Origin: Escherichia phage CEC_Kaz_2018
Sequence record: NC_073070.1
Direction: 5' to 3' (one strand)
Length of the DNA: 44,283 bases
The translations under genes were made by a program, and so were the position numbers. Shown piece after piece: positions 40,275 to 40,366 of this stretch (the stretch's first letter is position 1; the number at the start of each line of letters is the position of its first letter). The notes under the pieces were generated by a model, which was not told the origin of the DNA, did no database searches, and was given only the letters and a program-made list of their open reading frames with translations.

Positions 40275-40366
40275 TTGAAACGGTCGCGCACGCGTGTAAT
40301 AATAATCCCGTCTCATTGTCTCTTATTGGTTAGCGCCGGTGCATTTTGCCTCGGCGCTTTTTTTTT
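40275..40366 (+). ncRNA. candidate ~50-nt small RNA: promoter-like TTGAAA-N16-TAATAA followed by strong intrinsic terminator
   Basis: terminator GCGCCG-13nt loop-CGGCGC + T9 at 40333-40366 with no upstream (+) gene to terminate. Confidence 0.35.

Follow-up and report, generated by a model that had tools for sequence, protein, structure and literature searches.

The genome of Escherichia phage CEC_Kaz_2018 (NC_073070.1) carries a strong intrinsic terminator on its plus strand, between two divergent operons, with no plus-strand gene upstream for it to serve. What, then, does it terminate? The window analyzed here (44,283 bp) is the complete genome of a virulent siphovirus of the genus Dhillonvirus (HK578-like), and positions refer to it unless another sequence is named. 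A preliminary description of positions 40275 to 40366 had noted a promoter-like sequence shortly before the terminator and proposed either that the two elements make a short RNA or that the terminator insulates the early promoter downstream from antisense read-through. The reading that we tentatively favor is that this promoter-terminator unit may encode a trans-acting small RNA directed against ribosome-binding sites. Its conserved target would be gp60, the first gene of the rightward operon, with the helix-turn-helix (HTH) regulator gene that opens the leftward operon as a lineage-specific second target.

The terminator (40333-40366, plus strand) consists of a hairpin at 40333-40357 and a tract of nine T residues (T9) at 40358-40366. 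Its stem is formed by GCGCCG (40333-40338) and CGGCGC (40352-40357), and T9 starts 0 nt after it; a GC-rich stem-loop therefore directly precedes the U run, as is expected of an intrinsic terminator. The stem and the T tract are as the preliminary description gave them. The 13-nt loop reported there has the right span but is not open, as it contains an inner GC/GC helix. Folding, which had been suggested as a check, revealed a stable structure: the RNA from 40305 to 40366 folds at -16.9 kcal/mol (z = -3.2 versus shuffles), and the terminator hairpin at -15 to -17 kcal/mol. A simple terminator scan missed this hairpin only on account of its loop limit of 8 nt. Across both strands of the whole genome we counted 16 T runs of at least 6 nt, and on the plus strand only T9, with its -15-kcal/mol hairpin, makes a strong terminator; the remaining strong combinations of hairpin and T tract are ordinary terminators of the leftward operon.

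Upstream of the terminator, the promoter scan returned a 10/12 match on the plus strand, which we designate P_s. It has a -35 hexamer, TTGAAA, at 40275-40280 and an extended -10 element, TGtAATAAT, at 40295-40303 (TG at 40295-40296, hexamer at 40298-40303). Both sigma70 hexamers are present within the accepted spacing of 16 to 18 nt (TTGAAA-17-AATAAT); the preliminary description had found the same site but read it one base early, as TTGAAA-N16-TAATAA. Promoter-like matches on their own are at chance level (2 found versus 3.3 expected in shuffles), and the unit rises above chance because of its pattern of conservation across relatives, described below. Depositors of related genomes have already marked parts of the unit, with a promoter annotated here in the GenBank record of HK578 and a terminator in the records of WF5505 and CS16.

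The nearest upstream plus-strand coding sequence ends at 34057, which bears out the earlier remark that the terminator has no gene to serve, and between 35 kb and 40275 the plus strand contains no promoter-like site above 9/12. The only plausible substrate of the terminator is therefore P_s, 30 nt upstream. The proposed insulation from antisense read-through likewise finds no source of read-through besides P_s, and it holds only in the sense that the terminator would stop P_s transcripts before they reach P_R, the main rightward early promoter.

Taken together, promoter and terminator predict a noncoding RNA of about 55 nt (40310-40366, plus strand). From the position of the -10 element we infer a transcription start (+1) near G40310, and the 3' end would lie in the U tract near 40362-40366, which corresponds to a transcript of 53 to 57 nt. 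In the predicted fold the first 22 nt are unpaired and are followed by the hairpin. The 5' segment, GUCUCAUUGUCUCUUAUUGGUUA (40310-40332, plus strand), is the candidate seed, and its target-pairing core is at 40317-40333. The unit contains no ATG and no open reading frame (ORF) that is conserved among relatives; with a predicted promoter and terminator of its own, it has the makeup of an independent noncoding transcription unit. Plus-strand ORFs at 40223-40333 and 40275-40499 were rejected as genes, their frames being lost in relatives through 1-nt indels and changes in the length of the T tract. A 24-codon minus-strand ORF behind the start-region-like copy of the seed repeat (site B, below) was also rejected; its frame is lost, and there is no upstream minus-strand promoter.

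Comparison of the whole window with Rfam 15 at the gathering score gave no hit, C4 antisense RNA (RF01695) included. At E values of up to 10, the hits in the region were all chance matches driven by the terminator, scoring no more than 21 bits where the thresholds are 43 to 79, and a Rfam search of HK578 returned nothing. A tRNA and tmRNA search found none.

We then turn to how the unit has been maintained in relatives. Every one of the 153 Dhillonvirus records in the phage collection contains the 105-bp unit, at 85 to 98% identity; nearly everywhere it is unannotated or covered by a dubious ORF. Column variability was read from an alignment of 19 distinct Dhillonvirus sequences (alignment A2). 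One of the six columns of the -35 hexamer varies, as do 5 of 17 in the spacer, none of 6 in the -10 hexamer, all 7 in the discriminator, 1 of 23 from +1 to +23, and 8 of 25 in the hairpin. Strong conservation thus starts at the predicted +1, immediately downstream of seven discriminator columns that all vary, a pattern that has the look of a promoter followed by a functional transcript. The segment from +1 to +23 is unpaired in the predicted fold, as would be expected of a conserved single-stranded seed. The hairpin is paired in 100% of cells across the 19 sequences, and two of its stem pairs show compensatory double changes, G-C to U-A and G-C to C-G (in Ioannina, LM40P1 and IMG/VR sequence L027). 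The T tract varies between 8 and 13 T residues in relatives.

Outside the genus, the unit was absent from 5,426 complete E. coli genomes. The sister Guernseyvirinae have a compact divergent promoter region of about 145 bp without the unit; the same holds for Cornellvirus VSiP and Pantoea phage AH01, which have a related primase, and the Kagunavirus-like phage Bas70 has a different layout. The HTH protein is limited to Dhillonvirus. Since the unit is absent from sister groups with a related primase, we regard it as an invention of the genus Dhillonvirus. A pattern scan of IMG/VR for the seed recovered Dhillonvirus contigs only, apart from one chance 17-mer. This exact 17-nt seed match, GTCTCATTGTCTCTTAT, preceded by ATAATAAT, is found in four IMG/VR sequences (L024, L025, L029 and L037; recorded sizes 7 to 98 kb). 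It was rejected as a true copy of the seed and treated as a chance match, as it reads as the antisense of a coding region in unrelated large phages.

What might such an RNA act on? The first gene on either side has a Shine-Dalgarno region complementary to the 3' two-thirds of the RNA's 5' segment, UGUCUCUUAUUGGUUAG. The sequence GTCTCTTATTGGTTA (40318-40332) recurs in direct orientation at 40208-40222 and in inverted orientation at 40583-40597, and a repeat finder independently reported the three sites, which we call A, B (the seed) and C, as D2, I1 and I2. Site A (40208-40223, minus strand; D2 with site B on the plus strand) is the ribosome-binding region of the HTH mRNA, 5'-UUAACCAACAGGAGAC-3', and is followed by 7 nt and the AUG. 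Site C (40583-40599, plus strand; I2 with site B) is the ribosome-binding region of the gp60 mRNA, 5'-UUAACCAAUCGGAGAUA-3', and is followed by 4 nt and the AUG. Both are candidate targets. The seed-gp60 duplex spans 17 positions, 16 of them paired (13 Watson-Crick and 3 G-U) with one mismatch; the seed-HTH duplex spans 16 positions, 15 of them paired (13 Watson-Crick and 2 G-U), also with one mismatch.

When ungapped complements of the seed were sought among the 64 start regions of the phage, gp60 ranked first and HTH second. Cofolding of the whole RNA with the gp60 leader gained -14.3 kcal/mol, a value equalled by 1 of 300 shuffled seeds, and cofolding with the HTH leader gained -13.7 kcal/mol, equalled by 4 of 300. 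By both the rank and the shuffled-seed tests, the complementarity of these sites, which were found post hoc, goes beyond chance. On the two strands of the 44-kb genome there are only three copies of the composite motif AACCAA-NN-RGAGA, each of them within 40202-40610, and 3 of the 5 genomic copies of TAACCAA are in this region. In a transcript reading through the terminator, the minimum-energy fold pairs the seed with site C.

The pairing with gp60 (16 pairs, 1 mismatch) is kept in every lineage except the Ioannina type. The only substitution at site C among the sequences compared (HK578, C to T) hits the one unpaired position of the duplex. Loss of AACCAA from the gp60 leader is confined to the Ioannina type, and no other lineage has a change in the seed, which in the Ioannina type has lost 1 nt. 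Pairing with the HTH mRNA differs between lineages: WF5505 has 18 contiguous pairs with 0 mismatches, and the window and the slur05 type have 15 of 16. The small RNA of the preliminary description, whose expression is a prediction, is thus partly supported, as to anatomy and as a candidate gene, by its presence in 153 of 153 records, its conservation, the compensatory hairpin changes, the lack of a conserved ORF and the complementarity to ribosome-binding sites.

Several observations, some of which also speak for a role at the DNA level, weigh against this reading. The complementarity was noticed post hoc. A loop-tolerant duplex energy places the two sites no higher than 7th and 8th among the 64 start regions, because the CU-rich seed pairs with any Shine-Dalgarno sequence; prediction of phage targets, another check suggested at the outset, thus singles out the two flanking genes by ungapped complementarity but not by this measure. 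Pairing with the HTH mRNA is weak or absent in most lineages, with 7 + 6 pairs in the B2/EP23 type and none in the HK578 type, HK578 having a different HTH gene start. The compensatory changes in the hairpin come from a single lineage, the most divergent one, and amount to one evolutionary event. The genus is shallow (91% mean column identity), so that "invariant" columns carry limited weight. A search of the literature library found no report of a Dhillonvirus transcriptome or small RNA. Finally, no compensatory change between seed and targets was found across lineages: the targets vary on one side only, and in Ioannina the seed and the gp60 site degenerate together in a noncompensatory manner. 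The pairing is therefore not proven by covariation.

This lack of covariation is also what would be expected if the repeats were DNA operators. On that explanation, AACCAA-NN-RGAGA at A, B and C, together with an AACCAAT in the spacer of P_R, would bind the adjacent HTH protein or a host factor and repress P_s, P_R and the leftward promoter P_L, the short RNA being a by-product. There are four AACCAA(T) copies in 409 bp where 0.27 would be expected, the fourth lying inside the P_R spacer at 40394-40400; sites A and B are each located at about +8 to +25 downstream of their own start sites; and the neighboring gene encodes a protein with HTH_23 and Sigma70_r4_2 matches. We nevertheless consider an operator array unlikely. 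The Shine-Dalgarno sequences of the two first genes fall precisely on sites A and C, which read in the same sense on both mRNAs, whereas site B has the opposite sense inside a promoter-terminator unit, an orientation that is needed for RNA pairing and irrelevant to an operator. Moreover, the sites are asymmetric and nonpalindromic, conservation at site B reaches 8 nt further 5' (GUCUCAUU), to the predicted +1, and HK578-type phages have lost site A but retain B and C.

The surroundings of the unit bear on its function as well. The interval 40202-40603 is the sole point in the genome at which gene orientation switches. To its left is a block of about 32 kb, mostly on the minus strand, that contains the HTH gene, the primase-helicase gene, small genes, and the lysis, packaging, head and tail genes; to its right is the plus-strand replication operon, with gp60, an exonuclease-like gene and, across the junction of the record, the DNA polymerase and helicase genes. 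The small-RNA unit therefore sits in the main regulatory hub of the phage. Its location beside the primase-helicase gene at the orientation switch, adjacent to an A/T tract, might also suit a replication origin in the divergent region that is activated or primed by the short RNA or by its transcription. This strikes us as highly improbable, as the repeat search found no iterons or other origin features, the predicted efficient terminator would release the RNA, and the complementarity to start regions would be left unexplained.

P_L, the promoter of the HTH-primase operon (TTGACA-17-TAGTTT, 40233-40261, minus strand), was read from the sequence and lies back to back with P_s. Its -10 hexamer is too weak to be listed by the promoter scan; an equivalent minus-strand promoter is annotated in HK578. 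P_R (TTGACA-18-TATCAT, 40378-40407, plus strand) scored 11/12 in the scan, and both of its hexamers are fixed in relatives. T9 and GAAATTAG, just upstream of P_R, could serve as its UP element.

This arrangement allows for an explanation in which the RNA itself has no function: P_s would be a decoy or competitor promoter that tunes P_L, the terminator would spare P_R from occlusion, and the T tract would be the UP element of P_R. The -35 hexamers of P_L (40256-40261, minus strand) and P_s (40275-40280, plus strand) are 13 bp apart, which, judging from known polymerase footprints, is too close for joint occupancy; T9 and GAAATTAG are at -20 to -2 relative to the -35 hexamer of P_R, the position of an UP element; and P_s provides the only plus-strand transcript that the terminator could stop. 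We rate this explanation as quite unlikely, since it accounts neither for +1 to +23 being the most conserved stretch, beside a freely varying discriminator, nor for the complementarity of that stretch to both flanking start regions.

The first gene of the leftward operon (39872-40201, minus strand) encodes an HTH DNA-binding protein of 109 amino acids with Pfam matches to HTH_23, Sigma70_r4_2 and HTH_28 (phrog_9366). It has been annotated variously as "DNA recombination nuclease inhibitor gamma," "transposase" and "resolvase." The protein matches small HTH domains only, behind a coiled-coil-like N terminus, and judging from these domains it is more likely a transcription regulator. HK578-type phages encode a longer protein that has only the HTH part in common with it. 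The first gene of the rightward operon, gp60 (40604-41032, plus strand; phrog_3127), was placed by its ORF and start codon and encodes an acidic protein without a match in Pfam, PDB or PADLOC.

Directly after gp60, a hairpin of 7 bp, all GC, is followed by TATTTTT (41041-41060, plus strand). It is likely an attenuating terminator inside the rightward operon; an equivalent terminator is annotated in WF5505, and it is present in phages with or without the structured leader described below. A short promoter-terminator unit ahead of a long operon with further terminators, such as that at 41041-41060, recalls pR'-tR' of lambda, in which case the terminator would be passed only by antiterminator-modified polymerase and would give the rightward operon a second mode of expression. 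There is very little to recommend this idea. The near-consensus P_R (11/12), which starts 12 bp beyond the T tract, separates the terminator from the operon; the downstream genes are replication rather than late genes; and no Q-like protein was identified, though no search aimed at one was made.

The P_R promoter region (40367-40407) and the gp60 start region (40559-40603) also share a repeat. The sequences GAAATTAGTTGTTGACACC and GAAGTTAACTGCCGACACC are 74% identical (direct repeat D1), and each is followed 7 to 8 nt on by AACCAATC and next by TATCAT or GGAGATATACCAT. The two regions look paralogous, and this may explain the fourth AACCAAT in the P_R spacer.

Returning to the small RNA, the observed sequence features, their conservation, and the complementarity with its statistics suggest how it might act. 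Host RNA polymerase would start at the strong extended -10 promoter P_s, near G40310, and stop at the hairpin and U9, which would yield an RNA of about 55 nt with a 23-nt unstructured 5' segment, a terminator stem-loop and a long U tail. This is the usual build of enterobacterial base-pairing small RNAs. The sequence UGUCUCUUAUUGGUUAG would pair with the Shine-Dalgarno sequence and the preceding 9 to 10 nt on the gp60 and HTH mRNAs. Such pairing would block ribosome binding and would probably expose the mRNA to decay, so we infer an effect in the repressive direction; as the RNA accumulated, it would throttle or shut off translation of the first early products. The terminator would at the same time keep P_s transcripts out of the P_R operon, and in any transcript that read through, the seed would fold back onto the ribosome-binding site of gp60. 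The start region of gp60 (GGAGAUAUACCAUG preceded by UUAAC) is, as we presume, close to the very efficient leader of T7 gene 10. If this likeness holds, the shared UUAACCAA-GGAGA cassette may be a strong start region, with the RNA designed to silence it.

Several known RNAs resemble the predicted one in part. In function, the closest is sar of P22, an RNA of about 69 nt from the immI region that is made constitutively from its own promoter, ends at an intrinsic terminator and, within a compact regulatory region, pairs with the ribosome-binding site of ant. Both would be RNAs against ribosome-binding sites in a compact phage control region. However, sar is transcribed from the strand opposite its target and is fully complementary to it, as a true cis-antisense RNA, whereas the RNA described here does not overlap its targets, would pair through a repeat of 16 to 17 nt, and belongs to a virulent phage. 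In layout, the closest are c4 of P1 and P7 and CI of P4 (Rfam C4, RF01695), which act in trans via short complementary repeats that flank the RNA gene, one target covering a ribosome-binding site; this is analogous to the order of site A, site B (in the RNA) and site C. Unlike the unit, c4 and CI are cut from a longer transcript, have a conserved fold of their own, find their targets on the same transcript and serve lysogenic immunity. The unit, in turn, has an independent promoter and terminator, predicted targets on two divergent mRNAs and no Rfam C4 match.

The oop RNA of lambda (77 nt) also comes from the early regulatory region of its phage and is bounded by a promoter and an intrinsic terminator of its own, but it is antisense to the 3' end of cII, leads to RNase III cleavage and is not directed against a ribosome-binding site. 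The Hfq-type small RNAs with a 5' seed, such as RybB and OmrA/B, share with the unit a conserved single-stranded seed from +1, a Rho-independent terminator and a long U tail, and they pair at or beside the Shine-Dalgarno sequences of several mRNAs, as predicted here. The unit has no sequence or Rfam relation to them and is not found in E. coli genomes; a role for Hfq, including binding of the RNA, is hypothetical. Lambda 6S RNA and StxS (pR'-tR') are likewise short and terminated, and their strong promoter precedes a long operon; there the terminator is not followed by another promoter and read-through is Q dependent, whereas the unit is followed directly by P_R. Taken with these comparisons, the unit is a candidate new member of the phage-encoded base-pairing small RNAs.

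Between P_R and the start of gp60 lies a second RNA element. A structured RNA of about 160 nt is predicted at about 40415-40575 (plus strand); it begins just after P_R and constitutes the 5' leader of gp60. A core of about 60 nt (GGAGAGGRGCAACGCAGGGGC..GATCG.AGT.TC.GGATTCCCAACCGTGA) is nearly invariant between phage families, and helices P1, P2, P4 and P5 keep their pairing through many different sequences (inverted repeat I7). The helices were assessed in anchored alignments, as RNAalifold on a plain MAFFT alignment of the leader mis-registered P1 and P4. The leader is found in unrelated virulent siphoviruses, among them Drexlerviridae (slyngel, tunus and KMI8), Murrayvirus Lumpael, Enterobacter phage Arya and Serratia phage MQ-4, where it lies on the coding strand of intergenic gaps of 200 to 260 nt. 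Copies are located at 728-970 in L045, 744-978 in L046, 736-998 in L047 and 766-968 in L048, with others in IMG/VR sequences L049 to L052, L054, L056, L057 and L059. Overall, about 170 phage records contain it; E. coli genomes have no copy, and it has no match in Rfam. The genes downstream differ between phages, and the leader is therefore not a gene-specific riboswitch. Ahead of the copies outside Dhillonvirus there is no full sigma70 match, only a -10-like hexamer that in some carries a TGn extension. The leader is possibly a more unusual object than the small-RNA unit itself.

Within the genus, presence of the leader is polymorphic: most Dhillonviruses have it and others do not (40424-40572 of the window compared with L003, L009, L011, L013, L039, L040, L041 and L182). 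All that is left of it in the lineage of Ioannina and LM40P1 is a small hairpin, CGTCGAAACGACA, that joins both strands of closing helix P1; this looks like a clean insertion of the leader into a 5' stem-loop, or its clean excision from one. A role as a processive-antitermination element is disfavored, as Dhillonviruses without the leader retain the same downstream terminator. A pattern scan of GTDB for the leader gave essentially chance 16-mer hits and one true copy. This is a complete leader in L123 (QFQS01000013.1), a contig of 42,764 bp, the size of a phage genome, that is binned in a Cereibacter sphaeroides metagenome-assembled genome and is probably a mis-binned siphovirus contig. The leader core AGGATTCCCAACCGTG (40475-40490) is 75% complementary to the plus strand of the P_L -35 region (40251-40266; inverted repeat I3), and the P_L region read on the minus strand, AGGATTTGACACCGTG, resembles the leader core. 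This resemblance is probably due to chance.

Gene calls at the locus differ between public records. In phage B2 the start of gp60 is placed at ATG 40424, inside the structured leader (40424-41032 in the window); the Ioannina record (L039, 719-1453) extends gp60 back across the whole small-RNA unit; and CHD5UKE2 and others annotate a "hypothetical protein" over the unit (L040, 704-847). In most relatives gp60 is called from the counterpart of ATG 40604, a start codon with a strong ribosome-binding site, and the other gene calls look like annotation errors.

The window sequence itself calls for some care. Compared with Escherichia phage B2 (NC_073069.1, L018), it has equal length and coordinates, with 4,030 substitutions, 0 indels and 70 N. 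The HTH proteins of the two are 79% identical, and some stretches of the window are nearer to slur05 and Gluttony. The window thus looks like a reference-guided consensus or mosaic on B2 coordinates rather than an independent assembly, and bases specific to it, for example, GT at 40339-40340, need to be treated with caution.

One may go further and ask whether a single RNA of about 55 nt is a shared switch for both divergent first cistrons, acting against their ribosome-binding sites. It would have been built by inverted duplication of the cassette UUAACCAA-NN-GGAGA and would time early shut-off without a repressor protein, beside, and on an mRNA headed by, a structured leader of about 160 nt that moves between unrelated siphovirus families. 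As a whole, this extended scheme is doubtful. The small RNA that we tentatively favor makes a concrete prediction, namely, one RNA, two targets and a defined interaction of 17 nt, for which nature provides variants in WF5505, with its 18 perfect pairs, and in Ioannina, with its degenerate seed and target. Dhillonviruses are common, easily handled phages of E. coli K-12; several are included in the BASEL collection, and many are in development for therapy. To our knowledge, regulatory small RNAs are well documented in temperate phages and prophages, and only a few are known in virulent phages. If the prediction is true, the annotation of about 150 GenBank records, in which the unit is blank or lies under spurious ORFs, would be corrected, and an RNA layer would be added to the control of early genes in a lytic siphovirus.

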